Virus record (IMG/VR): IMGVR_UViG_2627853872_000003
Source of the DNA: a virus
Lineage: Duplodnaviria; Heunggongvirae; Uroviricota; Caudoviricetes
Length of the DNA: 45,982 nucleotides
Reading direction: 5' to 3' (one strand)
Part shown: piece by piece, positions 5,279 to 18,847 of the stretch
Position numbering within the stretch: the first letter of the stretch is position 1
Layout of the letters: every line of letters starts with the position of its first letter
The notes under the pieces: model-generated
Database searches by the model: none
Seen by the model: the letters and a program-made list of their open reading frames with translations, nothing else
What the model was told of the DNA's origin: nothing
Program-made: the position numbers and the translations under genes

Positions 5279-6213
5279 CAGTCCGATTCCCCGGAGTACG
5301 GCACCAACCCAGTCTCGCCGATTGCATCGTCGATGGTTCCAAGCAAATCGCCTGCAGTCTCGTTCGGTATCTCTATAACCGAGAACAAATCGATTGCGCC
5401 AACATCTTTAGCGTTGGCCAGACGCTACACCGCCTGATCAGCTGAAACCACACTCCGCGGCCAAACGCAGCACCTCACCTCGCCGAATTTAGCTGGGCAA
5501 TGTCGCTGACCAGTGATACCGTCAGCTCGTGACTTTGATACGCCTCGACCAGCGAGTTGCCGGGATGCAGACAGCATCACCGGCGGCTTTGTCGTGGCTG
5601 GAATCGGTCATCAAGACCCAAGAGCTCTCCACGGCCACGAGCCACGATTTCGGCCAGCCCAGATGCTTCCGGTCACCCCGATATGACCTATCCGCCCTCC
5701 CCATGGGCGAGCGCCCCGATCGGAAGCAAGGGCCAGGGAACAAATCTCATAAAAATCTCAATATTTGCGTTTCCGCTGCTAGGGATGTCCGCTGACACTC
5801 CCTTAGTTCAGCACGCTTTGAATTACCTTGCCACACAGCCGATTTAGGTAAATTGCGCTTTACAAGACTCGTATTCCGTAGCACCATCATGCTCAGCACG
5901 AACGAGAAGATCGCTCGATTCGCTGCCGCACGCGGGACGCTAAGGCGTTCTCCTGCCAGGACTTTGAAAACTCCAGAGTGTGTGATGCACCGCCCCTCAC
6001 GAGGGTCGATGAACAAGCCGTCTCGGCGCCCGGGGCTCCCAAGAGAGTCAATGACCGGTCAGCCAGTCGAGCATGCTCATCCTCAATCCTCCTGTCGGGG
6101 CGGTACGCCGGGCGCCGCCATGCGCCCGGCCCTCATGCCAGCTTTCCGTCAGGGAGCAGGCATGAGTTCCGTTTGGTTGATTTGGTGTAAATCCATTGCA
6201 ACCAAACGGATAT

Positions 6214-6287
6214 GCGCCTCTAGCTCATCTGGCCAGAGCACCTGACTCTTAATCAGGGGGTACGGGGTTCGAGACCCCGGGGGCGTA
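6214..6287 (+). tRNA. tRNA-Lys(CTT)
   Basis: Full cloverleaf; loop CT-CTT-AA. Confidence 0.9.
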
Positions 6288-6773
6288 CGTAGCGCGACGT
6301 GCGGTGAAGTAGACCGCACACGTACCAGCGGGTGGTGCCGGGCACTGGGTAGGCGGCCAGAGTGCCGCAACCGACCATCAATCGGCTCCTCCCCTCTCGC
6401 AGGTCTTCCGGTGTCAGAGCCCGGTTGGGGTGTGGGGACGGCACCGATCGGCGTGAGATATACCGCCAACCGTCCACAGCTCGATTGCTCCGATCCCACT
6501 CCTCCTTCGCAAGGCGGGGCGGCGCGGCATCTCACCGCGAAACGACAACCCGTTCACCCAGTAGGGGCACCCAACGGTGAGCGGCACGGTGCAGGGTAAG
6601 ACACCTTCGGGTGGGTCGAATCAGAGAGGGACACCGGCACACCGGTGTGGCGCCGTGGACAGACACGGGGGCGATAATGCAGCCCTTGACGGAGCAGGAG
6701 CCGCCTCGTTCTGGCGGCAGGCTAGAAATCCGAACACCGAGTGGTCCCGTCGGGCGCAACAATCCGGGACGCT
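6288..6773 (+). ncRNA. Candidate large structured ncRNA, family unknown
   Basis: No credible ORF; many perfect hairpins including a cUUCGg tetraloop (6602-6613). Confidence 0.5.
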
Positions 6774-6845
6774 GCGAGCGTGGTCCAATGGCTACGACCT
6801 CAGACTTCCAATCTGATGATGCGGGTTCGATTCCCGTCGCTCGCT
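6774..6845 (+). tRNA. tRNA-Gly(TCC)
   Basis: Cloverleaf; loop CT-TCC-AA. Confidence 0.9.
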
Positions 6846-6998
6846 CTTGGTGCCCACGACGGTGGGTAGGGACAGAGGACGGTCCCTTCGCCACGGGGTT
6901 CGATTCCCTGCGTTGGCTTCGGCCCGCGGTGCGGAACTGGTGATGCCAGCTGGTCGGTGCCAGGTACCGGATCACTGCCGACCTTCTCCAAACATCTT

Positions 6999-7083
6999 GG
7001 CCCTGTGGCGAAACATGGCAGCCGCGCCGGATTCAAACTCCGGTGTCCGACAGGACGTGTGGGTTCGATTCCCTCCAGGGCCA
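6999..7083 (+). tRNA. tRNA-Leu(CAA)
   Basis: Cloverleaf with long variable arm; loop TT-CAA-AC. Confidence 0.9.
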
Positions 7084-7101
7084 CCGCGTCCGAATGAACA
7101 A

Positions 7102-7173
7102 TGCCTTGTGGGGTAATCGGCAGCCCACTGGATTTTGGCTCCGGGAGTTCAGGTTCGAGCCCTGGCGAGGCAG
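7102..7173 (+). tRNA. tRNA-Gln(TTG)
   Basis: Cloverleaf; U1-A72; loop TT-TTG-GC. Confidence 0.9.
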
Positions 7174-7199
7174 CAGGTCGGCGGACCCGAAACGCACAT

Positions 7200-7271
7200 T
7201 GCCCGGTGGTCTAACGGCAGGACTCCTGATTCTGGATCAGGTCGGTGGAGGTTCGAATCCTCCCTGGGCAG
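7200..7271 (+). tRNA. tRNA-Gln(CTG)
   Basis: Cloverleaf; loop TT-CTG-GA. Confidence 0.9.
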
Positions 7272-7384
7272 CATCGCGAATCCCACTGTGCGGAGTTAAT
7301 CGCCCGCGTGGCAGTGGTCTTCGCAGGTGGCGTTCCAGGAGCATGTTCGACGCTATGGCCCCGTTCCAGGATCACCACCACAAC

Positions 7385-7459
7385 GCCCTGATAGCTCAGT
7401 CCGGCCAGAGCATCTGCCTTGTAAGCAGAGGGTCGCCGGTTCGAATCCGGCTTGGGGCT
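7385..7459 (+). tRNA. tRNA-Thr(TGT)
   Basis: Cloverleaf; loop CT-TGT-AA. Confidence 0.9.
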
Positions 7460-7479
7460 CTCCCCCACCTTCGGGTGAT

Positions 7480-7554
7480 GCCGCCATAGCTCAGTGGCAG
7501 AGCGTTTCCTTGGTAAGGAAAAGGTCTCGGGTTCAACCCCCGATGGTGGCTCCA
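7480..7554 (+). tRNA. tRNA-Thr(GGT), CCA encoded
   Basis: Cloverleaf; loop TT-GGT-AA. Confidence 0.9.
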
Positions 7555-7694
7555 CGGTTGTCGGTGACCACCCGCTGCGCGAGCGGAATGCGGAACCGTC
7601 AGTCCCGGCGCCCCCGCCCATGCAGGGGTCTTCGATGGCCGCGCCGTGCCGGGCAAGCGAAGGTGCACCTCGCCGGAAGGCATGGGTTTCCGAT

Positions 7695-7770
7695 GTGGAT
7701 GTAGCGCAGCTGGTAGCGCGTCTCGTTGCCAACGAGAAGGCCGCGGGTTCGAATCCCGTCTTCCACTCCA
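7695..7770 (+). tRNA. tRNA-Gly(GCC), CCA encoded
   Basis: Cloverleaf; loop TT-GCC-AA. Confidence 0.9.
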
Positions 7771-7904
7771 GCACTTCTCCCCTTCGCGGGAGGTGTGGGG
7801 GCTGGTTCCGGCCCCGGCGTCAACGGAGGGTTCGCGTGGACCCTGTACCGCCCGATTGAGGTTGGCGGACGCAGAGCGCAGGTAACCCCTGTGGCAGGAC
7901 ACAT

Positions 7905-7978
7905 GCCCCTCTGGCCCAACTGGCAGAGGCGTCGGCTTCAGGTGCCGAAGGTTCCCGGTTCGAATCCGGGGAGGGGTA
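7905..7978 (+). tRNA. tRNA-Leu(CAG) with short variable loop
   Basis: Cloverleaf; loop TT-CAG-GT; 5-nt variable region. Confidence 0.85.
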
Positions 7979-7984
7979 CAACGA

Positions 7985-8758
7985 GGCATGGCTCGATAAC
8001 CGGAGGTGACTCCGGGAAAGGTGGGTGTGACACCCCGCCGCCACATCTCTACGGGGATGTGGCACACCATGCACGGCTCCCGCAAGGAGTACCTGGGCAA
8101 CCGGGTGCCACAGCGGTCCGAGTTCGACGGCAGAAGGGACGGCGAGTGCTCACCTTCGCGCCGGCGCTACGCAGCGCCGGCACCGTCACGTGAACGAGGA
8201 TCGCCAGCGGGGTGCGAGGGAACACAAGTCCAAGCTCGCCAGGCGAGGGCGGTTCCCATGACCTCGGAATCCGGTGGGCGCATCGGTGCACGGCGAAGAG
8301 CGCAATGGCTTGGCGGCCAAGCGCGAGGGTGTGAAGCATTCTGTGGCTCAAAAGGTTACGGAACTTCGTGGGAAAGCACATCCTCAGTCAACAAGCACTA
8401 GCTCAATTGGCAGAGCAATCGTTTCTGGAACGGTAGGTCGCCGGTTCAAGTCCGGCGTGTTTATCCCAAGCGAAAGACTTTCCCTGCCACGGCTCGAAAG
8501 CGCCGTAATCCTCGGCCCTGCAAAGGGAACCGAGGCAGTTGTGAACTCGCAAGGTGATCAGCTGTCCGTGAGGCGGTAGAGCAATACAGAGGTTAGCTCC
8601 CTCTGTGCGAATCGAAACCTGCGGAGTAGGTCGTGGCATGACGAGTGGCTGCCGCAAGCAGCCCGGCGTGACGGTTACCAGTGGAAGCTGGATGGATAAG
8701 TCGGGAAACCATAATCCGATGAGAGACCGTTGCTTTGGGGCCTAATCTCAGCCCCAAA
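7985..8758 (+). ncRNA. Probable GOLLD lncRNA (~770 nt; ends approximate)
   Basis: ORF-poor, many GNRA hairpins; motifs I associate with GOLLD from memory: GGCTCAAAAGGT (8345-8356), GCGAAAGA (8470-8477), GCTGCCGCAAGCAGC, terminal 8-bp stem with loop CTAATCTCA (8734-8758); tRNA-array context is typical. Confidence 0.7.
8392..8464 (+). tRNA. tRNA-Gln(CTG)-like element nested in the putative GOLLD
   Basis: TAGCTC D-arm, loop TT-CTG-GA, T arm GCCGG-TTCAAGT-CCGGC; weak acceptor stem, no CCA. Confidence 0.65.
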
Positions 8759-8765
8759 TAACCAA

Positions 8766-8840
8766 TAGCTCGTAGCTCAATTGTGGCAGAGCGCGCGACT
8801 GTTAATCGCGTGGTTGGAGGTTCGACTCCTCCCGGGCTAG
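8766..8840 (+). tRNA. tRNA-Asn(GTT)
   Basis: Cloverleaf; loop CT-GTT-AA. Confidence 0.9.
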
Positions 8841-9004
8841 CGCTGCCGAGTAGGGACGCGTACCTACGGTGGTGACCGCTGAAAAGGAGCAGTGACCGTG
8901 CCCGGCTTGGTACGGCGGCGTGGGGGGCGCCGTAGTCCTCGGGGGTATCCCCCGGCACATCGGAAAGCGTCGAGTCCACAGTGTGTTCGACAGACACCTC
9001 TTTA

Positions 9005-9077
9005 GGGGGCTTAGCTCATCTGGTAGAGCGCCTGCCTTGCAAGCAGGAGGTGGCGGGTTCAAGCCCCGTAGCTTCCA
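9005..9077 (+). tRNA. tRNA-Ala(TGC)
   Basis: Cloverleaf; G3:U70. Confidence 0.9.
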
Positions 9078-9148
9078 CTCCCCGTCAGAATCGGGCGCAC
9101 CCGCGCCATCCCGGCCCGCCCCACAACACGGAAAGGAGGCGCGGCGCC

Positions 9149-9616
9149 ATGACAATGATCGTGCCCGCCCCCGCTGTGCGGGTGTTCAACGCCGACTATT
9201 CGTTCCTCGACACCGTGCGCTGGCAAGACGCGGTCGGCATGCTTCTACGCGACGTGGCGTACGCGCTCGAGGCCCACGTGCCCCCGCGCATCGTCCGCTC
9301 GCCGAACGCGGAGGTGGAGGTGCCCAAGTCGCTTCTGCTGACTCGGTACGCCCCTGTCCCCTACCGGCGTGATCCGGAGTTCGCCTCGCGTGCCGAGATT
9401 CTGCGCAGGGACAACTACCTGTGCCAGTACATCGGCTGCGGAGCCAAGGCCACCACGATCGATCACGTGTTCCCGCGTTCGCGCGGCGGCGCACCGTCAA
9501 CGTGGACGAACCAGGTAGGCGCGTGCGAGCCGTGCAACGGCCGCAAGGCAGACCGCACGCCGGAGGAAGCGGGTATGAAGCTGATCCGTGAACCGTTCCG
9601 ACCAGCGCACATCTGA
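9149..9616 (+). CDS. HNH endonuclease
   Basis: RRDNYLCQYIGC..TIDHVFPRSRGG..N...ACEPCNGRK; AAGGAGG RBS. Confidence 0.92.
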   Translation: MTMIVPAPAVRVFNADYSFLDTVRWQDAVGMLLRDVAYALEAHVPPRIVRSPNAEVEVPKSLLLTRYAPVPYRRDPEFASRAEILRRDNYLCQYIGCGAKATTIDHVFPRSRGGAPSTWTNQVGACEPCNGRKADRTPEEAGMKLIREPFRPAHI

Positions 9617-9660
9617 CGACGGGGAACAGACCCGTGACGGCTCGGAGAGACGAGTTTCCT

Positions 9661-9735
9661 GGTCCGTTCGTCTAGTTGGCCCAAGACACCTGGTTCTCAA
9701 CCAGAAGATCACCGGTTCGAATCCGGTACGGACTA
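9661..9735 (+). tRNA. tRNA-Glu(CTC)
   Basis: Cloverleaf; loop TT-CTC-AA. Confidence 0.9.
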
Positions 9736-9872
9736 CGTTAAGTGGCGTTGAAATCGGGTTTGATTCCCGCAGGCCGATGGTGTGCCTGGTTGGTGTGGTG
9801 CCGCACGTCATGTGAGAGCCGTGAAAATCGGCGAAAACTCTACCGCTGCTGATCAATCCGCAAGTAGAGCAT

Positions 9873-9948
9873 GGTCCCGAAGCTGAACTGGTTCAAGCGC
9901 TCGGTTGAAGCCCAAGAGATGGCGGTTCGATTCCGTCCGGGACCACCA
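9873..9948 (+). tRNA. tRNA-Phe(GAA), CCA encoded, atypical (A8, anticodon-stem mismatch)
   Basis: Perfect acceptor stem; loop TT-GAA-GC. Confidence 0.8.
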
Positions 9949-9950
9949 GT

Positions 9951-10038
9951 GTCGATGTGGCGGAACGGAATACGCACTAGCTTGAGGTGCTAGCGCCCTA
10001 TTACGGGTATGCAGGTTCGACTCCTGTCATCGACACCA
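9951..10038 (+). tRNA. tRNA-Leu(GAG), CCA encoded
   Basis: Cloverleaf with long variable arm. Confidence 0.9.
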
Positions 10039-10039
10039 A

Positions 10040-10112
10040 GCCGCGGTAGCTCAGTAGAGAGAGCACCTGCCTACGAAGCAGGGGGCCGGGGGTTCAAATC
10101 CCTCTCGCGGTA
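10040..10112 (+). tRNA. tRNA-Arg(ACG)
   Basis: Cloverleaf; loop CT-ACG-AA. Confidence 0.9.
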
Positions 10113-10133
10113 CTGAGACTGACAGTCTCTCTA

Positions 10134-10207
10134 CGACTCATAGCTCAGCTGGTTAGAGCGCCGCTCTGATAAGGCGGAGGTCTGGGGTTCAAGTCCCTGT
10201 GAGTCGA
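10134..10207 (+). tRNA. tRNA-Ile(GAT)
   Basis: Cloverleaf; loop CT-GAT-AA. Confidence 0.9.
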
Positions 10208-10252
10208 CAGCCGCTATTCTCTGCAAGGGCACCCAGCGTCAGGAGAGTTCCT

Positions 10253-10618
10253 GTGGGTAATCACCTCCCGGAGACGAAACGTCGGCTTCAAGCCGAATAT
10301 CGATCACGCAATGTAGAGAAGCTACGTTGCGCAAGCAGACAGCGGCGAGCTGCAATCAAAGATGAGGCCCTAACGCAATACGGCAGATGCTGTGCCTGTT
10401 GCGGATTCGACAATCCTTTGGCACTCGTTGTAGACCACGTGGATGACAACGGGGCTGAGGAGCGAAAGGCTCTCGGCGGGCAGCATTTCGCAGGATGGAA
10501 CTTCTACTCACATTTGCGGAGGCAAGGGTGGCCCGCTGGCTATCAGACTCTCTGCGCGAATTGCAACATGATCAAGCAGCAGACCTTGCTGCAGAATGCC
10601 GGTGTAGCTCAGCGGTAG
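10253..10618 (+). CDS. HNH-like endonuclease; stop lies inside tRNA-Asp
   Basis: CACCG..LVVDHV..LCANCNMIK; AGGAG RBS before GTG 10253. Confidence 0.8.
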   Translation: MGNHLPETKRRLQAEYRSRNVEKLRCASRQRRAAIKDEALTQYGRCCACCGFDNPLALVVDHVDDNGAEERKALGGQHFAGWNFYSHLRRQGWPAGYQTLCANCNMIKQQTLLQNAGVAQR

Positions 10619-10669
10619 AGCGTCCGCCTGTCGAGCGGAGGGCCGCGGGTTCAAGTCCCGTCACTGGCG
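10598..10669 (+). tRNA. tRNA-Asp(GTC)
   Basis: Cloverleaf; G73. Confidence 0.9.
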
Positions 10670-10697
10670 CCCGTGGTGCATTTTGAGCACCGTTTTC

Positions 10698-10774
10698 AGT
10701 CTCGTAGCTCAGTTGGAAGAGCACCTGGTTTACACCCAGGGTTGTCGGGGGTTCGAATCCCTCCGGGACTACCA
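10698..10774 (+). tRNA. tRNA-Val(TAC), CCA encoded
   Basis: Cloverleaf; loop TT-TAC-AC. Confidence 0.9.
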
Positions 10775-10775
10775 T

Positions 10776-10856
10776 GCCGGCACGGCGCAGAGGCGAGGCG
10801 CAGCGGCCTGTAAAGCCGTTCTTTCGGGTGAGTGGGTTCAATTCCTTCTGCCGGCA
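10776..10856 (+). tRNA. tRNA-Tyr(GTA), C8
   Basis: Cloverleaf with extended variable region; loop CT-GTA-AA. Confidence 0.85.
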
Positions 10857-10887
10857 CCGGGCCCGCGTCGGCCTCAACGACGCGAAA

Positions 10888-10961
10888 CGGGATGTGGCGC
10901 AGCTTGGTAGCGCATCTGCTTTGGGAGCAGAGGGTCGCACGTTCAAATCGTGTCATCCCGA
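10888..10961 (+). tRNA. tRNA-Pro(TGG)
   Basis: Cloverleaf; C1-G72. Confidence 0.9.
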
Positions 10962-10975
10962 CAAACAAGATTTCA

Positions 10976-11048
10976 GCCCGCGTAGCTCAGTGGATAGAGC
11001 GCCTGCCTCCGAAGCAGGAGGCCCCGAGTTCAACTCTCGGCGTGGGTA
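10976..11048 (+). tRNA. tRNA-Arg(CCG)
   Basis: Cloverleaf; loop CT-CCG-AA. Confidence 0.9.
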
Positions 11049-11071
11049 CTATTCCTGATCAGGGAGAACAC

Positions 11072-11145
11072 TGCCCCTATGGTGTAAGTTGGTAGCACTC
11101 TTGGCTTTTACCCTTGAAACGTCGGTTCGAACCCGGCTGGGGCAC
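11072..11145 (+). tRNA. Degenerate tRNA-Lys(TTT)
   Basis: D and T arms intact; two U-U mismatches in anticodon stem; acceptor register irregular. Confidence 0.6.
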
Positions 11146-11195
11146 GGTGAGAACGACACAAATTTTGCGCCGAACTCTTTGTCGGATGCAGTTTT

Positions 11196-11627
11196 ATGAT
11201 CGAGACCATGTGCAAGTGTGGCGAATGTAAGACCTGCAAGCGACGAGTAGTCGATCGCCGTAGGTACGAGAATAATCCCCTTCGCCGCGAGATGATCGCA
11301 GACAGGTGCGAGCGTAACCGTGCTGCGAAGCGTGCAATAGTCGAGCAGTACCTTGTCACCCATCCGTGCGTGGATTGCGGTGAGGCTGATCCGATTGTTC
11401 TTGAATTCGACCACGTTCGGGGCGAAAAGGCATCCAACATCTCGGACTTAGTCGTATCCGGCGGCCTGAGGAAGTTGATGGATGAGATTGCGAAGTGTGA
11501 TGTCCGCTGCGCCAACTGTCATCGACGAGCTACCTATATGCGACGACTGAAGGATGCGGGGCTCGGGCGGTACAGCAATCCGTACGAACTCCAATCCCAA
11601 CGAGTTTCACATGCGTCCGTGGTCTAG
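11196..11627 (+). CDS. HNH-like endonuclease; stop lies inside tRNA-Trp
   Basis: PCVDCGEADPIVLEFDHVRG..KCDVRCANCHRR. Confidence 0.85.
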   Translation: MIETMCKCGECKTCKRRVVDRRRYENNPLRREMIADRCERNRAAKRAIVEQYLVTHPCVDCGEADPIVLEFDHVRGEKASNISDLVVSGGLRKLMDEIAKCDVRCANCHRRATYMRRLKDAGLGRYSNPYELQSQRVSHASVV

Positions 11628-11685
11628 CGGCTAAGACGCCGGTCTCCAAAACCGGAAGACGCAGGTTCAAGTCCTGCCGGGCGTG
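11613..11685 (+). tRNA. tRNA-Trp(CCA)
   Basis: Cloverleaf; G73. Confidence 0.9.
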
Positions 11686-11751
11686 CAAATATCCGACCAT
11701 CGAACGGTGGGCGGATCCAGAGGTCGCGGCGACGGTCGCAGCCTCGTCCAT

Positions 11752-11824
11752 GGCGTCGTGCTGTGATGGCTAGGCACCCGGGTTTTCACCTCGGGACGCG
11801 CGGGTTCAATTCCCGTCGGCGCTA
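11752..11824 (+). tRNA. tRNA-Glu(TTC)
   Basis: Cloverleaf with weak D arm; loop TT-TTC-AC. Confidence 0.8.
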
Positions 11825-11998
11825 CTCGATTTTTCGGCGTGTCGCGACGCCTGGCTGGCCCTTGACGCCGACCTCGAACAAGCTGAATCCGCGAGATCCC
11901 GTGTCAACGCCAACCCCCCGTTATCACCTGGCGAAGGCATCTCCACGACGCCGCATAGTCTCGGACGAGAGGTGACCTGCACGGGATCTCGCGCATAT

Positions 11999-12070
11999 GC
12001 CCCTGTAGCTCAGTGGACAGAGCGGCACGGTCCTAACGTGACGGCCGGCGGTTCGAATCCGTCTGGGGCG
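11999..12070 (+). tRNA. tRNA-Arg(CCT), atypical
   Basis: Loop GT-CCT-AA (G32); acceptor mismatch and shortened T stem. Confidence 0.7.
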
Positions 12071-12205
12071 CGGGCGGCACGACGATGTCGCACACCTCTC
12101 GCATGAGCAGTCTCGGGGCTAGCACCGAACTGCGAGTAATGGCCCGCACAATCTTCGGGAATGATTGGTGCACGGCTTTAGCGGGCAGCATCGGGCGTGA
12201 GTATT

Positions 12206-12281
12206 GGGCTGTTGGCACAGTTGGTAGCACGCTTCCGTGGCGCGGGAGAGGTCACCGGTTCGATCCCGGTACAGTCCACCA
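12206..12281 (+). tRNA. tRNA-Ala(GGC), CCA encoded
   Basis: G3:U70; loop GT-GGC-GC; D stem GCAC/GCAC partly mismatched. Confidence 0.8.
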
Positions 12282-12388
12282 CTTCGATAATCGGCGTGTC
12301 GCGCGGTCGCAGTGGATTCGAGAGTTCTTGCAGCGGAGGCTATATGCCAGTGCTCGAACCGCACCAATCGCCGAACCTTGGAGGGCAT

Positions 12389-12592
12389 ATGAAACTCTGC
12401 GTCACCGCTGTGATCGCGGCGGCACCCTTGTTGATCTTCGCTCCATCCGCCAGCGCGGGGCCGCGCTGCCTCCCAGACCAAACAGCCTGCTGCCCCAGCG
12501 GCTACATAGTGGCCGAACACCCCAGCGGTGCGATGACGTGCTCTCCTGACGTCGATGCCCAGTCCGCCGCCCGAAACAGCATCCCGATTTGA
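12389..12592 (+). CDS. Small secreted Cys-rich protein
   Basis: GGAGG RBS; signal peptide ending ASA-G; 4 Cys in mature part. Confidence 0.7.
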   Translation: MKLCVTAVIAAAPLLIFAPSASAGPRCLPDQTACCPSGYIVAEHPSGAMTCSPDVDAQSAARNSIPI

Positions 12593-12652
12593 TCGGTAGA
12601 CACTCCACCTCCGCAGTGTGCGCCGCTGCGATTCAGAGGTGTCAGGCGCAGG

Positions 12653-12727
12653 AGCGGAGTAGGGCAGCTCGGTCAGCCCGCGTGGCTCATAACCACGAAG
12701 TCGCAGGTTCGAATCCTGCCTCCGCCA
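12653..12727 (+). tRNA. tRNA-Met(CAT), A1xC72 mismatch (initiator-like)
   Basis: Cloverleaf; loop CT-CAT-AA. Confidence 0.85.
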
Positions 12728-12794
12728 CGACGTCCCACATGAGCTGCAACAAGGGATAACAGAGGGCACGACAACACCGATGGTGGTATGAGAC

Positions 12795-13040
12795 ATGGCT
12801 AATGATCCTGGCCGACGAACTGCGGAAAAACGCTCGTGGCGTCGTGAGATTGACGTGGAGGCAACAGCCCAGGTCGAGCCGTTCAACCCGTACGCGCACT
12901 GCATAAGCCTGGTGGAGTGCCGCACAACCTGCGTCTATGTGGGCCAGGGGTGTTCAGAGGTGCACAGGAATCACTATCGAGGTCTCACTGCTGATGAAGG
13001 GGTTCCACCACCCCTAACTCAGCGAGTCAACGCTCCGTAG
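12795..13040 (+). CDS. Hypothetical protein; stop lies inside tRNA(CAT)
   Basis: Fills an inter-tRNA gap; no recognisable domain. Confidence 0.4.
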   Translation: MANDPGRRTAEKRSWRREIDVEATAQVEPFNPYAHCISLVECRTTCVYVGQGCSEVHRNHYRGLTADEGVPPPLTQRVNAP

Positions 13041-13103
13041 CTCAGTTGGTAGAGCTCCGCACTCATAATGCGGAGGTCGCGGGTTCAAGTCCCGCCGGAG
13101 CAA
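13031..13103 (+). tRNA. tRNA(CAT), Met or Ile2, C1xA72 mismatch
   Basis: Cloverleaf; loop CT-CAT-AA. Confidence 0.85.
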
Positions 13104-13185
13104 CGAGTTCTAGCCCCTTGGGGGCCTGAACATTTGGAGGGTGCTTCCGACGAATGGCGCCGTCGATGTGGCGCTGTTCTGCCCT

Positions 13186-13635
13186 TCAGAACTGAATGTT
13201 GGCGCTCACCGAGTATCGATCGAACTGGGAATGTCCGAGCAGGCCGTCGAGAAGCCGGGCACGCTGCATCTCGGGCTCGCTGACCTTCATCCCGATCACG
13301 CCTTTGCCGTCTTCGCTTATGGTGTTTCCGCTCGGCAGAACACAGCGACCGCCATCGACGCTCAAAACAAGATCACGCTGAATGGGCACACCGTTGTATC
13401 GGATGTCGAGCCAGTGGCCGTAAATCTTCTTATCTGGGAATCCGCCAGATTCGGACCATGTCTCGGTCCAAGGCTCACCATCGAGATGGTCCTTGCCCCA
13501 GGCAAGGCTAATTGCGGCGTCCTCGTGAAACACGTACAGCTGCCGGTGACCATCCTCAGTGGTCACATTCTCGACCTTCGTCCAGTCGTCTGGAGAACTC
13601 GCCTCAACCTTTGTGAGGATCGAAAAGTAGTTCAC
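13186..13635 (-). CDS. Hypothetical protein antisense to the array
   Basis: Globular, protein-like 149-aa ORF. Confidence 0.75.
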   Translation of the reverse strand: MNYFSILTKVEASSPDDWTKVENVTTEDGHRQLYVFHEDAAISLAWGKDHLDGEPWTETWSESGGFPDKKIYGHWLDIRYNGVPIQRDLVLSVDGGRCVLPSGNTISEDGKGVIGMKVSEPEMQRARLLDGLLGHSQFDRYSVSANIQF

Positions 13636-13743
13636 GGCTGAAATCTAACCAGGACCAGTCGGATATCACCTGGCTTACGCGAATCTGGCCTGTGCACCTT
13701 TCTTCATCACATCCTGAACCGCCGGATAGCCTCCGGCAGAAAT

Positions 13744-13833
13744 GGAAGACCCACCCGAGGGCTGGCGACGGGCGCTGTCTTGAAAACAGTTGGGGCCGAG
13801 AGGCCCGTGTCGGTTCGATCCCGACGTCTTCCG
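13744..13833 (+). tRNA. tRNA-Ser(TGA), atypical D region
   Basis: Acceptor GGAAGAC/GTCTTCC, long variable arm, G73. Confidence 0.85.
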
Positions 13834-13968
13834 CGCAACCCAACCGGCTCACAACCGCACGGGAACCGCTCGGCTGAGATGCCGGGTGCGGGTGGCTCCG
13901 CCTGCGTGTCCGGGGACAGACGGCGCGTAGACAGCGGCCCGGGCTGGGCCTGTCCCCCGGCTCGCCAT

Positions 13969-14044
13969 GGCGGCGTTAGCTCAGCGGCAGAGCCCCGGTT
14001 TGTGGAACCGGTAGTCGTCGGTTCGATCCCGACACGTCGCCCCA
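13969..14044 (+). tRNA. tRNA-His(GTG) with G-1:C73 and CCA
   Basis: Cloverleaf; His identity pair encoded. Confidence 0.92.
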
Positions 14045-14125
14045 CTGTTCGGTGCGCACTTGGCGGCTAAGCCCACAATCGCGCCGGACACAACCAACCA
14101 CGATGTTGCGACCGATCCTTAGGAC

Positions 14126-14416
14126 ATGCCAACCACCATCTACCCGACCATCCACGGTGATGATCGGAGTCTCGAAGCGATAATCGCCTCGTTCACCGTC
14201 AACGCGACGCTACGTAGCTATCTCGAGGATTTCTTGCCGGGACGACGTGACTTCAACCGGCCATCACACCTCGTCAAGTTTGACGGCGGTTGGATTCTCG
14301 TCTTTTACGTGGACACAGCTGACGACACCGGGTATCTCAAATTCGATTGCTCCGGTGGATCGTATGAGTTCATCGACGCCTACAGAGCACATGCCCTGAC
14401 GGGACGCTGGCTCTGA
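14126..14416 (+). CDS. Hypothetical protein
   Basis: AGGA RBS; protein-like composition. Confidence 0.65.
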   Translation: MPTTIYPTIHGDDRSLEAIIASFTVNATLRSYLEDFLPGRRDFNRPSHLVKFDGGWILVFYVDTADDTGYLKFDCSGGSYEFIDAYRAHALTGRWL

Positions 14417-14526
14417 GACGAGGTCAGCATGATGCACTGGACGGAACCTGACAGGTAAACGTTGTCGACCAGGGTTAGTGCACTAGGCGAGGATCGGGCG
14501 CAGTGCGACCGCGTCTGCACGAGCAT

Positions 14527-14599
14527 GCCTCCGTGGCGCAACGGATAGCGCACCGGCTTTCTACTCCGATGGTTGCCGGTTCGAATCCGGCCGGGGGCA
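14527..14599 (+). tRNA. tRNA-Arg(TCT), weak anticodon stem
   Basis: Good acceptor, D and T arms; 3 of 5 anticodon-stem pairs. Confidence 0.7.
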
Positions 14600-14679
14600 C
14601 CGAGTTCGACACCGACACCGGCGTGTCGTCACCGTCTCGGCACAACAACAGAGCGTGCCGGACAGCATCGAAAGATCCA

Positions 14680-14757
14680 CGGGCTGTGGGAAAGCTTGGT
14701 CAATCCGCCTGGCTGGGGGCCAGGAAATCGCGCGTTCGAATCGCGCCAGCCCGACCA
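14680..14757 (+). tRNA. tRNA-Pro(GGG), CCA encoded
   Basis: Cloverleaf; loop CT-GGG-GG. Confidence 0.9.
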
Positions 14758-14803
14758 GCGTGGCGGAAAGCCTGTCGCGCGAAAACACACGAAGGGAGGA
14801 GCC

Positions 14804-15994
14804 GTGAGCACACAATTCCCCGTCACGATGCGCGGGGCAGACAACGTCGCACTCTGGGCGTACGAGCATGAGATCGAGCCGGCCGCCCTGAACCAGTTGC
14901 GCAACATCGCCGCTCTCGGGCCGGTTGCCAAGGTAGCAGTGATGCCAGATGTCCACTTGGGCAAGGGCGCCACGGTCGGATCCGTCATCGCGATGCGAGA
15001 TGCGGTCTCCCCCTCGGCGGTCGGCGTCGATATCGGTTGTGGTGTCTGCGGCGTCCGAACGTCTCTTTCAGCCCACGATCTCCCGGATGATCTGTCCGGG
15101 CTGCGCTCCGCGGTGGAGGCAGCGATTCCGGTCGGGTTCAACTCGCACGAGCGGGCCGTGAACGTCCAGCGTCTCGGGCTGCGCACTGCTGACCACGATC
15201 GACTCTGGCAGTCGGCCAAGGCGATTTACGCCAACGTTGACCCGTTCGGTGGTCGTGCCCCGCGCCAGCTCGGCACGCTCGGTGGCGGCAACCATTTCCT
15301 CGAGGTGTGCCTGGACGGCGAGGACCGCGTATGGCTTACCCTCCATTCAGGATCGCGTAACGTCGGCAAGGAGCTGGCTGAGCGACACATCACGGTCGCA
15401 AAGGGCCTGCCGCACAACGCAGATCTACCGGATCGAGACCTGGCGTTCTTCTACGCGAACACCCCGGAGATGGACGCTTACCTCTACGACCTGACGTGGG
15501 CGCAGCAGTACGCCGCGCTGTCGAGGCAGGTGATGATGGCGCTGTTCCGCACCGTACTCAGCGAGGCCTTCGCAGGAGTGCGGTTCACCGACGAGATCAA
15601 CGTGCACCACAACTACGTGCGCCGCGAGACTGTTGGCGGTGAGGAGTTCATCGTCACCCGCAAGGGGGCTATTCGCGCAGGATCTGACGAACTGGCGCTG
15701 ATCCCCGGCAGCATGGGTACGGGCTCGTACGTGGTGCGCGGTTTGGGTAACCCTGAGTCGTTGTTCTCAGCCTCGCACGGGGCGGGTCGCAAGATGAGCC
15801 GCTCCGCCGCCAAACGGACATTCACCGTCGAGGATCTGGCAGAACAGACCGCCGGCATCGAGTGCCGAAAGGACGCTGGTGTCGTCGACGAGATTCCCGG
15901 GGCCTACAAGGACATCCACGGTGTCATCGCCGCTCAGGACAACCTCGTCGCCGTAGTGGCGCACCTGCGCACCATCCTCTGTGTGAAGGGCTAA
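14804..15994 (+). CDS. rtcB: RtcB RNA 3'-phosphate/5'-OH ligase
   Basis: MPDVH, GVDIGCG, LGTLGGGNHF, HSGSR, HHNY, IPGSMG, SHGAGR, DEIPGAYKDI; GGGAGGA RBS before GTG 14804. Confidence 0.97.
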   Translation: MSTQFPVTMRGADNVALWAYEHEIEPAALNQLRNIAALGPVAKVAVMPDVHLGKGATVGSVIAMRDAVSPSAVGVDIGCGVCGVRTSLSAHDLPDDLSGLRSAVEAAIPVGFNSHERAVNVQRLGLRTADHDRLWQSAKAIYANVDPFGGRAPRQLGTLGGGNHFLEVCLDGEDRVWLTLHSGSRNVGKELAERHITVAKGLPHNADLPDRDLAFFYANTPEMDAYLYDLTWAQQYAALSRQVMMALFRTVLSEAFAGVRFTDEINVHHNYVRRETVGGEEFIVTRKGAIRAGSDELALIPGSMGTGSYVVRGLGNPESLFSASHGAGRKMSRSAAKRTFTVEDLAEQTAGIECRKDAGVVDEIPGAYKDIHGVIAAQDNLVAVVAHLRTILCVKG

Positions 15995-16166
15995 GTCGCA
16001 TAGCGGAAACCCCTGATGGGTTGAGACAGCATGCGCGAGGTGCGGCACGTCGATGCCAGCGTGTCGTACCTCGTGCTTGGCGACAGTGCGGCGGCATGGC
16101 ACCGTTGTGACAAGCACAGGCGCGTGCCTCGTCATCTGATGCAGACCCACGACAGGAGAGCCGATC

Positions 16167-16394
16167 GTGAATATGCCGTCCAGCAACAAGGTCATCGAAG
16201 AGCTCGGGGACTATGTCAACGACCCGGCCAATGCTTCAGTTATGGATGTCTTCCGGGAGATCGGCGAGCGGGGACGGATGTTGCACACCGCGGAGATCGC
16301 TTCTGATCCGGAGTGGTTCGCACGGAGATTCGTTGCGTGGATTCGAGCAGGGGCGCCGGCATGCAGCAGACAAGCTCTCAACCCCGACAACTAG
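16167..16394 (+). CDS. Hypothetical protein
   Basis: AGGAG RBS; protein-like. Confidence 0.5.
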   Translation: MNMPSSNKVIEELGDYVNDPANASVMDVFREIGERGRMLHTAEIASDPEWFARRFVAWIRAGAPACSRQALNPDN

Positions 16395-16483
16395 CTCAAC
16401 AGTCCAACTGACGAGTTGTGTGCTCTGCCACCACGCCGTGTACCAGCGTGGGCACGGAATCACTTCAATGTGCGGAGACAAGA

Positions 16484-16723
16484 ATGCGGAAACCCGATGG
16501 TCGATCAATGGCGGCCCTCAAGAAACTTGAGCAGCAGAACAACCGACTCAAGTCCTCCTATCACACCGCGAGCGAGAAGCGTGCGATGAAGGCCGCACGC
16601 GAGAAGCGGCAAGCTACGCGAGCCGAAGCTAGTGCGGAAGAGCTTCAGGAGATGTTGGACGCCGATATACGTTGGCTCGACAGTCTTGGCCCCAGGCTCA
16701 GCCAAAAAAGGTCTGACACCTAG
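16484..16723 (+). CDS. Small basic helical protein
   Basis: GGAG RBS; charged coiled-coil-like sequence. Confidence 0.5.
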   Translation: MRKPDGRSMAALKKLEQQNNRLKSSYHTASEKRAMKAAREKRQATRAEASAEELQEMLDADIRWLDSLGPRLSQKRSDT

Positions 16724-16788
16724 CCTTCGGCAACACTTCCCAACTTGAACATTGAGCTGGCCCAGCTCCACCCGCGTCAGCGGGTTCT

Positions 16789-16862
16789 GTCTCCGTGGCC
16801 GAGTGGTTAGGCAGCGGCCTGCAAAGCCGTCTACGCCGGTTCAAATCCGGCCGGAGACTCCA
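16789..16862 (+). tRNA. tRNA-Cys(GCA), CCA encoded
   Basis: Cloverleaf; U73. Confidence 0.92.
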
Positions 16863-16884
16863 CACTGGTCCACCGGCCAGCAGC

Positions 16885-16958
16885 GCCCCCATAGCTCAGT
16901 TGGCCAGAGCGGCTCACTCGTAATGAGCAGGTCACCGGTTCGATTCCGGTTGAGGGCT
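16885..16958 (+). tRNA. tRNA-Thr(CGT)
   Basis: Cloverleaf; loop CT-CGT-AA. Confidence 0.9.
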
Positions 16959-16984
16959 CAAACGGACACGTGCAGTGTCTGATT

Positions 16985-17058
16985 CGGGGTATGGGAAAGC
17001 TTGGCAATCCGCCTCGTTCGGGACGAGGAGACCGGCGGTTCAAATCCGTCTACCCCGA
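16985..17058 (+). tRNA. tRNA-Pro(CGG)
   Basis: Cloverleaf; loop TT-CGG-GA. Confidence 0.9.
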
Positions 17059-17136
17059 CGTTGGTTTTGCACGCTACCTAGCAGTATCTTTTGGATAGAT
17101 GATAGTATCTGCCAAACAGATACCGGAGGAGTGGAC

Positions 17137-17772
17137 ATGACCTACCCCGATACGAGCATCGCGCACCCCACCGATATCGTCCGCGAGGCTGATGCGCCTT
17201 GGCATACGGGCGACGTGTTCAGCCTTCGCGGCTTGGTCGACGCCGCAGTGCTGATCCGCCCCTTGTCCAGACACGTTTACGCATCGCGATGGAGCCACGA
17301 CGGTAGAGCAACGGCGATCGTCGCCGATATAGCGGTGCTAGAGGACCACAACCATGCCGCCAGCCTCTACAGCCAAGTCACCATTTTCCAACCGAACGTT
17401 GTCAAGGCGCTGTGTGCGGTTCTGGACAATCCGCAGGTTTTCACCGTCGCCGGCGTGGTGTCCACGATCGGCGATAGTGAGCGGCGCGCCTTGGTGCTAG
17501 CTCCACTACCGGAGGCTCTGGTCCCTTTCGCCGCTGCAGAAGCAGCAGCGCGGGACTGGGACTATCCCCCGGACTACGACGCAATCGTGGGCCGCAAGAT
17601 CGCCGCTCTGCGCAGCGATAAAGGACTTCCCCAGGCCGCCCTAGCGGGCGTATTGGGTGTCATGCAGTCGGGCGTATCCGACATTGAATCCGGACGACGG
17701 TCATTGGACCTCAAGAAGTTGTATGCCATCGCATCTGCACTGAGCGTGCCAGTGCATGAGCTGTTGCCCTGA
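17137..17772 (+). CDS. Protein with C-terminal XRE HTH
   Basis: KIAALRSDKGLPQAALAGVLGVMQSGVSDIESGRR; GGAGGA RBS. Confidence 0.85.
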   Translation: MTYPDTSIAHPTDIVREADAPWHTGDVFSLRGLVDAAVLIRPLSRHVYASRWSHDGRATAIVADIAVLEDHNHAASLYSQVTIFQPNVVKALCAVLDNPQVFTVAGVVSTIGDSERRALVLAPLPEALVPFAAAEAAARDWDYPPDYDAIVGRKIAALRSDKGLPQAALAGVLGVMQSGVSDIESGRRSLDLKKLYAIASALSVPVHELLP

Positions 17773-17783
17773 CGGGCGCAACA

Positions 17784-17811
17784 ATGACATCCGATTGCAT
17801 TGCGATATAAC
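17784..17811 (+). promoter_or_regulatory. Possible sigma-A promoter for tRNA-Ser(GCT)
   Basis: ATGACA-16 nt-TATAAC ending 7 nt before the tRNA. Confidence 0.35.
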
Positions 17812-17817
17812 AAATTT

Positions 17818-17903
17818 GGAGACGTGGCAGAGCGGCGAATGCAGCGCGTTGCTAGCGCGTAGTCGACCTACATCGGCCGAGGGTTCGAGTCCCTCCGTCT
17901 CCG
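17818..17903 (+). tRNA. tRNA-Ser(GCT)
   Basis: Cloverleaf, long variable arm, G73. Confidence 0.88.
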
Positions 17904-18847
17904 CGGGCATCACACGCTTTGGGGTTCTTGTCCGCCAGCTACCCTCGCCGTACTGTTTGGCCCATGGCTAACGTACTCGGAGGACGGTGGTGATGGGTCG
18001 ACCGTTTCCTGAGGCGGAACGGGCATTGGCGCTGGATACGTCGGTGCTGGCGCCGCCGCTGGCTGCTGAGCGGTTGGGGCGCACGGTGGGCAGCGTCCGT
18101 ACTTTCGTTGCAGCCGCAAGATCCTGAACGATCGCGATAACGGGTTCACCGTCGAGGATCGCCGCCGTACCGACAAGATTGCTGTTGCGCCTGTTGCGCC
18201 TGCTGCCCCAGAGACCCATCAAGTGCCGTACTGACGAACACGACAAACAATTCACTCAGAGACAAAGGTCAAGTAATGCGTCGATTTGAAAGGTACTGGG
18301 CATGGCTCACCGCCATCGGGGCGCAGATACTAATCGTGGCCAACGTCATTGATCATGACTGGTTCGGTGTTGTGATCGGGGTCTTGGCGCTGCCGGTGGG
18401 TCTGTGGTGGGTGTACGACAACCGGAACTCGGAGAGAACCGCCGCCGAACAAGAACAGCTGGCCGCTGAATGGACCGACGCCAAGGTGCAGGATGTGATC
18501 GCAGGTCATCATGATCAAGTCAGCGCGGTGAAGGCGATGCGAGCAGCTGATCCCCGACTCGGGTTGGTCACCGCCACTCGACTTGTACGGCGGGCCAGAG
18601 CGCCACAAGAAACCACCCATGATCCCAATGCCCAGCGAGGCGGTAGCAACTCTCGGCCCGATGCTGACCGGCGTTGACGCCGGCAACAACACACCGCATC
18701 TTCGCGCATTTTCGCACTGAACACCACCTGTCTACACCCGAACGAAACACGTATCGGCAAGCAACAGACATTTTCTGGATGGTCGAGGAGGCTTCGAGTC
18801 CCTCCGGCTCCGCCGGCATCACACACTCTGGGGTTCTTGTTCGCCAG
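17884..18847 (+). repeat. 55-bp imperfect direct repeat (17884-17938 / 18793-18847) containing the tRNA-Ser 3' end
   Basis: 50/55 identical by manual alignment. Confidence 0.85.
18276..18677 (+). CDS. Membrane protein with 2 TM helices
   Basis: Two N-terminal hydrophobic helices plus a soluble helical domain. Confidence 0.75.
   Translation: MRRFERYWAWLTAIGAQILIVANVIDHDWFGVVIGVLALPVGLWWVYDNRNSERTAAEQEQLAAEWTDAKVQDVIAGHHDQVSAVKAMRAADPRLGLVTATRLVRRARAPQETTHDPNAQRGGSNSRPDADRR

Follow-up and report, generated by a model that had tools for sequence, protein, structure and literature searches.

Phage T4 encodes two stable small RNAs of unknown function, rnaC and rnaD (species 1 and 2), in its transfer RNA (tRNA) cluster. 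The second of them is listed as a 'stable RNA' (PMC5931544). Further structured RNAs associated with tRNA genes on mobile elements are the theta ribozymes, minimal ribozymes of the hepatitis delta virus (HDV) type whose start coincides with the 3' end of a tRNA (Kienbeck et al., 2024; PMC10879173), and the ornate, apparently protein-free GOLLD and ROOL RNAs, located by tRNA islands and showing loop-loop contacts (PMC12286853). Mycobacterial tRNA arrays of the group designated G2 by Morgado and Vicente are common in the Mycobacterium abscessus complex (315 of 362 array-bearing genomes; PMC5966550). The accessible portions of the descriptions of such arrays (Morgado and Vicente, 2018, PMC5966550; Behra et al., 2019, PMC6582537, and 2022, PMC9569102) give tRNAs, transfer-messenger RNA (tmRNA), and a GOLLD match of ~430 nt as the only non-coding content and mention no spacer RNAs. 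The present work deals with one such array, located on a 45,982-nt stretch (the window) of the Caudoviricetes record IMGVR_UViG_2627853872_000003 of IMG/VR, and with the structured RNAs encoded between its tRNA genes.

Mycobacterial G2 units are dense clusters of 20 or more co-oriented tRNA genes; the array has 37 ARAGORN/Rfam calls in 11.7 kb, all on the plus strand. Its tRNA order matches that of the G2 array of plasmid pCBMA213, and GOLLD RNA with an embedded tRNA as well as an HNH gene lie inside it, as in mycobacterial G2 units. It is therefore an element of a known kind, namely a G2 tRNA array of the mycobacterial type in which GOLLD, HNH, and RtcB are present. As in T4, with which it is compared by description, non-tRNA, non-coding units of 100-200 nt are found between the tRNA genes; in contrast to the two RNAs of a lytic coliphage, these are six or more unrelated, exchangeable folds on an integrated/plasmid actinobacterial element. 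Its modules are two to three times longer than theta ribozymes, without the nested double pseudoknot of the HDV ribozyme, and, with 100-290 nt, match neither the GOLLD nor the ROOL model. At least five of nine inter-tRNA spacers of 112-172 nt and a module of ~290 nt in the Lys-Gly spacer are separate structured RNA genes, selected as strongly as tRNAs. Arrays acquire or lose the modules as complete units, at fixed slots, and transcribe them on the tRNA strand.

Comparison of the inter-tRNA modules across homologous arrays

Approximately 12 distinct arrays from Mycobacterium, Mycolicibacterium, Tsukamurella, and metagenomes were compared. In distant arrays, five spacers, named after their flanking tRNA genes (Gly-Leu, Gln-Thr, Thr-Gly, Glu-Arg, and Ser-His), hold 69-85% identity (Ser-His 73-85%, Thr-Gly 77-79%, Glu-Arg 69-73%). 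Since these values are near the level of the tRNAs (75-82%) while the fourfold-degenerate sites of the HNH gene are at 34-44%, the modules are as constrained as the tRNAs. No reading frame is common to the module homologues, and a small-protein reading was rejected on this ground. The order of the tRNA genes is fixed, and the slots between them carry either a full module or 1-30 nt, most module slots being empty in some arrays. Six arrays have 138-144 nt in the Thr-Gly slot, two others 1 nt (L105) or 18 nt (L097). The Asn-Ala slot measures 163 nt or 10-13 nt (the latter in six arrays), and the Glu-Arg slot 172-187 nt or 9 nt.

The alignments behind the structures are small and made up of related sequences, and the helices were assigned manually. 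Changes on both sides of a pair were found in 14/48 pairs (Ser-His), 5/39 (Thr-Gly), and 19/32 (Glu-Arg), values reached in 0 of 500 shuffles, a count that is not a probability; slid controls of the covariation models were 32-46% paired. Sequences kept out of the models provide a stronger test than shuffle counts, and such unseen sequences did fit: L234 (with a fully swapped pseudoknot), L288, and 13 copies outside arrays. In 151 Mycobacterium genomes, the models R1 and R2 matched only in arrays. Viral contigs and metagenomes searched with Ser-His and Thr-Gly patterns gave no matches or matches at chance level, four of the five matches of one such scan were coding look-alikes, single modules gave no blastn matches against phages, and an HNH-based search for loci returned mostly unrelated ones.

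The Ser-His module measures 133-135 nt in eight arrays, Tsukamurella included, with 93% of alignment cells paired (slid controls 33-43%). Its loop-loop helix is itself nearly invariant; the pairing is supported because both strands sit in loops of covarying stems and because the M. aubagnense copy has lost the last hairpin and altered the partner loop. Hairpin 1 displays an anticodon-like, CU-led 7-nt loop (starting with CUC in most copies) and hairpin 2 a UGAGAU loop. In the Thr-Gly module, 96% of cells are paired. Its 5' domain hardly varies; next comes a multibranch domain that includes a hairpin capped by UGCA and a pseudoknot joining a hairpin loop to the 3' tail. In the unseen L234 (73 bits), GGCGGCG and CGCCGCC stand in place of the pseudoknot strands and are each other's best partner, and in the unseen metagenomic L288 (109 bits) the module fills the spacer exactly.

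The structured-RNA idea is upheld by this comparison, although the evidence on which the original prediction had based it fails. That prediction had described nine similar-sized, ORF-free, mutually different spacers rich in complementary segments, in a series of self-contained folded modules. The nine spacers are indeed present, with lengths of 112-172 nt and ARAGORN/Rfam tRNAs on either side; they show no matches among each other and, in the three best-aligned ones, no conserved reading frame, and the quoted complementary words occur at 8911/8928, 12098/12131, 12142/12181, and 13912/13950. Yet the number of Watson-Crick stems of at least 6 bp does not exceed that of dinucleotide shuffles in any spacer (P 0.28-1.0), and an unusually long stem (14 bp) was found only in 11826-11997. 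Judged by minimum free energy (MFE), two of the nine spacers fold better than dinucleotide shuffles and seven do not (Table 1; the background of the z-scores is -0.3 ± 1.1). As a criterion, folding energy was abandoned, as it also fails proven modules: Ser-His has a z-score of +0.06 in the window and -3.2 in Tsukamurella. The remaining spacers, supposed to be only 1-40 nt long, include ones of 65, 78, 302, 344, 371, 388, 467, 482, 485, 582, and 639 nt, which contain GOLLD, ORFs, and further RNA modules. With z-scores and stem counts at chance level, the complementarity might be ascribed to the 60-74% GC content and the similarity to mere shared ancestry; covariation and a conservation far above that of neutral sites make this explanation highly improbable overall and refute it for Thr-Gly, Glu-Arg, and Ser-His. 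In five of the nine spacers, a library of distinct, self-contained RNAs is borne out by three lines of evidence, namely purifying selection, covariation, and the presence or absence of modules at fixed slots.

For the Gly-Leu and Gln-Thr modules, covariation was assessed in 3-4 sequences only. Gly-Leu is 76% identical to its counterpart in the Tsukamurella-like L234, with 11/45 pairs changed on both sides in three sequences, and its slot is reduced to 29-30 nt in L001, L090, and L105. Gln-Thr has homologues in L089 and L234 (6/28 pairs two-sided) and a 20-nt slot in L097. The ~290-nt module, missed by the original prediction, is 88% identical in L234 (3668-3978) and makes up the whole Lys-Gly spacer of L288 (11946-12234); 15/70 pairs are two-sided in three sequences. 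It has no Rfam match, and it was rejected as an RNase P RNA since it does not align with that of the host. One contig set joins position 6688 back to 6586, a possible circle or an assembly effect. The adjacent 5' module of the same spacer (6289-6480) has homologues in L001, L089, L090, L097, and, in part, L234.

The Asn-Ala module is conserved but nearly invariant (1/50 pairs two-sided), too thin a basis to judge covariation. Homologues of 7771-7904 are confined to near-identical M. abscessus copies (slot 1-13 nt in four arrays), copies of 9737-9872 to M. abscessus and D16Q14 (slot 14 nt in L097), and a homologue of 12072-12205 was not found among the compared arrays. For these four spacers, above all the last, it would fit that modules are selfish/hitch-hiking RNA elements or decayed tRNA/protein genes of no benefit to the array, in line with the patchy presence of the modules, the HNH and IS110 insertions in sister arrays, and the T-arm-like hairpin in 6847-6998. 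As a general explanation this is improbable: the modules are single copies with non-cloverleaf folds, no repeats or target duplications were seen, and structure is retained while synonymous sites are saturated.

Additional modules were seen beyond the nine spacers. A 65-nt Trp-Glu spacer (11687-11751) forms two hairpins (z -2.8); in eight arrays, its length stays at 60-65 nt and the changes look compensatory. An Ile-Asp module missing from the window is conserved in four arrays (L001 12281-12408, L082 6880-7051, L090, and L107 11434-11597). One module occupies different slots in two array types (L002 4404-4543 and, in the Lys-Lys slot, L092), and others are shared by L082/L107 (Tyr-Pro), L002/L094 (Lys-Trp), and L001/L082 (Met slot, with a T-arm-like hairpin).

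The Glu-Arg junction RNA and its copies in phage satellites

The Glu-Arg spacer (11826-11997) consists of a three-way-junction RNA and a 5' part that is conserved only in a CGGCGTGTCG box and the word NA(A/T)GCT. These are separated by a non-conserved gap of near-constant length, with NA(A/T)GCT placed 6-7 nt before the RNA; the spacing is equal in six copies, one of which lies outside any array. Because the -10 word is the same as the CATGCT preceding the leader 5' end at 5903, the putative element may act as an internal promoter of the module. A sigma-70 scan found no promoter. The sequence CGGCGTGTC occurs three times in the array (11835, 12292, and 14619), each time soon after a tRNA, and may mark internal promoter elements.

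Within arrays, 8/32 pairs of the junction are changed on both sides, and 19/32 once satellite copies are added in an alignment fitted to the junction model, while the junction words stay fixed across array and satellite copies. The model revealed copies in five further genomes of the 151 Mycobacterium genomes as well as in viral contigs, of which many measure 11-12 kb. Most non-array copies start only a few bases from the stop codon that closes the final gene of a head-gene operon, and att-like repeats follow them. Copies after the last head gene are found in L255 (7171-7280), L256 (7614-7719), L257 (12202-12318), L259, L268, L269, L272, and L279. By PHROG matches, the L255 element encodes integrase, primase, terminase, portal, major head protein, and head-tail genes; the layout corresponds to that of capsid-encoding satellites of ~11-12 kb, the full gene set being shown for L255 only. 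Judged by this gene content, the second home of the RNA is capsid-forming phage satellites resembling capsid-forming phage-inducible chromosomal islands (cf-PICIs), from which it was probably picked up or with which it is shared.

The satellite copies have no Rfam match, no antisense target of the RNA was found, and the first part of a preprint on mycobacterial satellites (PMC12822802) mentions no RNA. The nearest analogy among small structured RNAs of phages/satellites is offered by the P4 CI and P1/P7 C4 RNAs. Both are small structured RNAs processed by RNase P. The Glu-Arg RNA differs from them in lacking an Rfam match and in its location after head genes instead of in an immunity leader.

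Transcription and processing

Transcription was followed in one informative raw stranded RNA sequencing (RNA-seq) run of a strain with an L094-like array, prepared as a standard library, which under-samples RNAs below 200 nt. Runs X22 and X23 are without the array, X1 contigs indicate presence only, and runs with a small share were excluded. Coverage extends over 28 of 30 bins, with a ratio of ~9:1 in the tRNA (plus) sense. GOLLD dominates the reads (depth 2800-6700), followed by the 290-nt module with a depth of 950 at 6572 compared to 25-122 at its edges. The Glu-Arg module reaches 116 at 11913 (10-15 in flanking bins), and Gly-Leu and Gln-Thr 70-160. An RNA 5'-end pile comprises 33 of 124 molecules at 5903, downstream of the -10-like word of a leader that is conserved in 12 arrays; positions 5740-6213 of this leader are partly conserved also in the G3-type array L083. 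A 3'-end pile (43/132 molecules) is located at 7900, 4 nt before a tRNA-Leu. Thr-Gly diverges enough in the sequenced strain to lose reads. Together, release of some modules from the transcript is suggested.

Liberation by tRNA processing, as anticipated by the original prediction, suits several modules that fill their spacers exactly from tRNA end to tRNA start and the end pile at 7900. It is a poor fit for the Glu-Arg module, with its own promoter-like element and its occurrence away from tRNAs. As for processing signals, a U at -1 (T in the gene, often within CAT) precedes 22 of the 36 tRNAs; the first C of CCA is encoded in 35/36 and the whole CCA in nine. In Bacillus subtilis, an encoded first C of CCA disfavours RNase Z.

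Known RNA classes

No description of these spacer motifs was found in the open-access literature searched. Rfam (Rfam 15), used at gathering threshold and at E up to 10, matched no spacer save for a weak mascRNA hit at 6852-6917 (E 0.72), and the hammerhead, twister, pistol, hatchet, riboswitch, C4, 6C, tmRNA, and RNase P models gave no spacer match at E up to 10. No spacer match is present among the best-ranked phage blastn matches. A bacterial Y RNA was rejected, as YrlA scores of 19-22 bits fall on tRNA genes only. Scans of 20 window proteins and the Pfam listings for sister loci showed no Ro60/TROVE protein. A pseudo-tRNA origin was dismissed as well: no spacer has an ARAGORN or RF00005 match, and only isolated T-arm-like or anticodon-like hairpins occur. 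Of the roles proposed originally (decoys, ribozymes, or guides), the second and third found no support. Guide RNAs (CRISPR RNA, omega-RNA, or bridge RNA) would show a constant scaffold with a variable guide, together with a matching target or partner nuclease, and the modules are mutually different and conserved end to end; the longest antisense match to them within the window is 13 nt, and the HNH protein is a stand-alone one of 155 aa.

Some modules might be self-cleaving ribozymes of an undescribed class that trim tRNA 3' trailers, for which the theta ribozymes of gut phages set a precedent (PMC10879173). Thr-Gly and Ser-His directly adjoin the tRNA end, show invariant letters at their start, and include pseudoknots, and the encoded first C would point to a trimming route other than RNase Z. 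This is nonetheless improbable, given that no Rfam ribozyme matches, the CUGANGA core of the hammerhead was not found in the spacers, and most array tRNAs have no such module. For theta/HDV-like ribozymes, which have a nested double pseudoknot with G1 at the tRNA 3' end and a catalytic C in J4/2, a descriptor (without positive control) had no match in nine of ten spacers and none at any tRNA end, its one loose match starting 15 nt inside 6847-6998.

Further features of the array

The coordinates of all features are compiled in Table 1. The HNH gene product shares 97% identity with a protein of M. abscessus. Some arrays of this species have an IS110 transposase between tRNA-Ala and HNH (L094 8312-9547). 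The RtcB gene follows the His-Arg-Pro tRNA block. The Rfam match of GOLLD covers 8324-8754 only; by RNA-seq, the transcribed ends are at 7990/7991 and 8740. The transcribed RNA of 750 nt extends far 5' of that match (7980-8323 folds at z -5), and the identity of its embedded tRNA varies by array (Gln, His, Ile, or unassignable). Two small Cys/His-rich ORFs between tRNAs (10199-10618 and 11196-11627), HNH-like by eye, have no Pfam match and are absent from close M. abscessus arrays. The metagenomic G2-like L288 has a tmRNA upstream (9353-9777), and in L102 (11315-11476) and L234 (6511-6841) a related short structured insert seems to interrupt tRNA-Pro and tRNA-Ala genes within the T-arm.

Table 1. 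Features of the tRNA array in the window, with MFE z-scores against dinucleotide shuffles
Feature	Position	Strand	Characteristics/evidence	MFE z-score
G2-type tRNA array	6214..17904	+	37 tRNA calls (one within GOLLD); ARAGORN, Rfam; pCBMA213 gene order	
Putative array leader promoter	5888..5903	+	-10-like CATGCT at 5888-5893; RNA 5'-end pile at 5903	
Lys-Gly 5' module	6289..6480	+	Absent from the original prediction	
~290-nt multi-hairpin RNA, Lys-Gly spacer	6481..6773	+	Homologues in L234, L288	
Gly(tcc)-Leu(caa) module	6847..6998	+	Three hairpins, third T-arm-like (6895-6909); near-invariant 3' stem-loop	-0.18
Gln(ctg)-Thr(tgt) module	7273..7384	+	Two long stem-loops, invariant loop segments	-2.66
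Thr(ggt)-Gly(gcc) module	7555..7694	+	Invariant 5' stem domain, 3' multibranch domain	+1.18
Gly(gcc)-Leu(cag) spacer	7771..7904	+	RNA 3'-end pile at 7900	-0.56
GOLLD RNA	7990..8754	+	Embedded tRNA-Gln-like domain (8391-8468); RF02032, 200 bits	
Asn-Ala module	8842..9004	+	Homologues in L089, L097	-0.32
HNH endonuclease	9149..9616	+	HNH_5; marker gene of G2 arrays	
Glu(ctc)-Phe spacer	9737..9872	+	T-loop-like words	+0.65
Promoter-like element of Glu-Arg module	11835..11885	+	CGGCGTGTCG box, then -10-like NA(A/T)GCT	
Glu(ttc)-Arg(cct) three-way-junction RNA	11891..11993	+	Covariation; common to putative phage satellites	-4.5 (spacer 11826-11997: -2.59)
Arg(cct)-Ala(ggc) spacer	12072..12205	+		+0.08 (+0.1 to +0.2)
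Ser-His module	13835..13968	+	Five hairpins, GGACAG/CTGTCC loop-loop pairing; comparative alignment	+0.06
RtcB RNA ligase	14573..15994	+	Listed ORF, start likely near 14800; Pfam PF01139, E 8e-118	

Proposed role of the modules

On balance, the array is taken to be a mobile cassette of non-coding RNAs that goes beyond spare tRNAs, a view held with moderate confidence. With similar confidence, most modules are supposed to be cut out of a long transcript starting near 5903. RNase P acting at the next tRNA would make the 3' end of a module, and an endonuclease behind the upstream tRNA its 5' end; the latter cut would need an endonuclease because exonucleolytic trimming of the upstream tRNA trailer would destroy the module. 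Compact folds would let the released modules persist, and the Glu-Arg RNA would start at its own promoter instead. More tentatively, the modules may serve as trans-acting, protein-binding decoys that shield the translation kit (tRNAs, RtcB, and GOLLD) from RNA-attacking proteins of host or phage, presumably through tRNA-like loops, i.e. the 7-nt CU-led loop and T-loop-like loops. This role, the remaining one of those originally proposed, is favoured on three grounds: the unit, RtcB included, is a kit for translation rescue; the modules are not obligatory; and tRNA-like loops are displayed.

Several observations weigh against such a cassette of released RNAs. The alignments hold few and related sequences with hand-read structures, and seven of the nine spacers do not exceed shuffles in stability. 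Ser-His is at background in the RNA-seq data (18-26x, without enrichment over its flanks, in a library poor for short RNA), and no end piles at its borders are among those listed for the one run. Since the satellite copies of the Glu-Arg RNA lie where an operon ends, a cis role is just as likely for them. Such a role in precursor folding/stability is the main rival explanation: modules would prevent misfolding of neighbouring tRNAs, block 3'-5' exonucleases, or aid RNA polymerase through a 12-kb non-coding operon, and would then be discarded. The lacking enrichment of Ser-His, the satellite copies directly between the last stop codon and the att-like repeats, and the fixed slots of the modules agree with this. 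It is still considered unlikely, as sister arrays have 1-30 nt between the same two tRNAs and one module of related arrays is found in two different slots; invariant loops, an own promoter-like element, and the 8-40-fold local enrichment of two modules point instead to RNAs with their own partner.

While the array type and the concept are known from T4 rnaC/rnaD and GOLLD, what appears to be new are at least six RNA folds for which no description was found, one of them shared with satellites. In arrays so far read as tRNAs plus GOLLD, the gaps hold at least six further conserved folds. Since the differences between sister strains amount to entire modules, module function can be tested directly, and the outcome would also inform the role of T4-type tRNA-cluster RNAs. 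The three-way-junction RNA ties tRNA arrays to phage satellites and gives the latter a conserved RNA for which no description was found. It is conceivable, if rather speculative, that mobile tRNA arrays in general are RNA islands, in which tRNA punctuation expresses an exchangeable arsenal of trans-acting RNAs, some of them from satellites, that serve as protein-free decoys or for interference in the conflict of host, phage, and satellite, the present array alone contributing six to ten new RNA classes. If true, such islands would be the RNA counterpart of defence islands.

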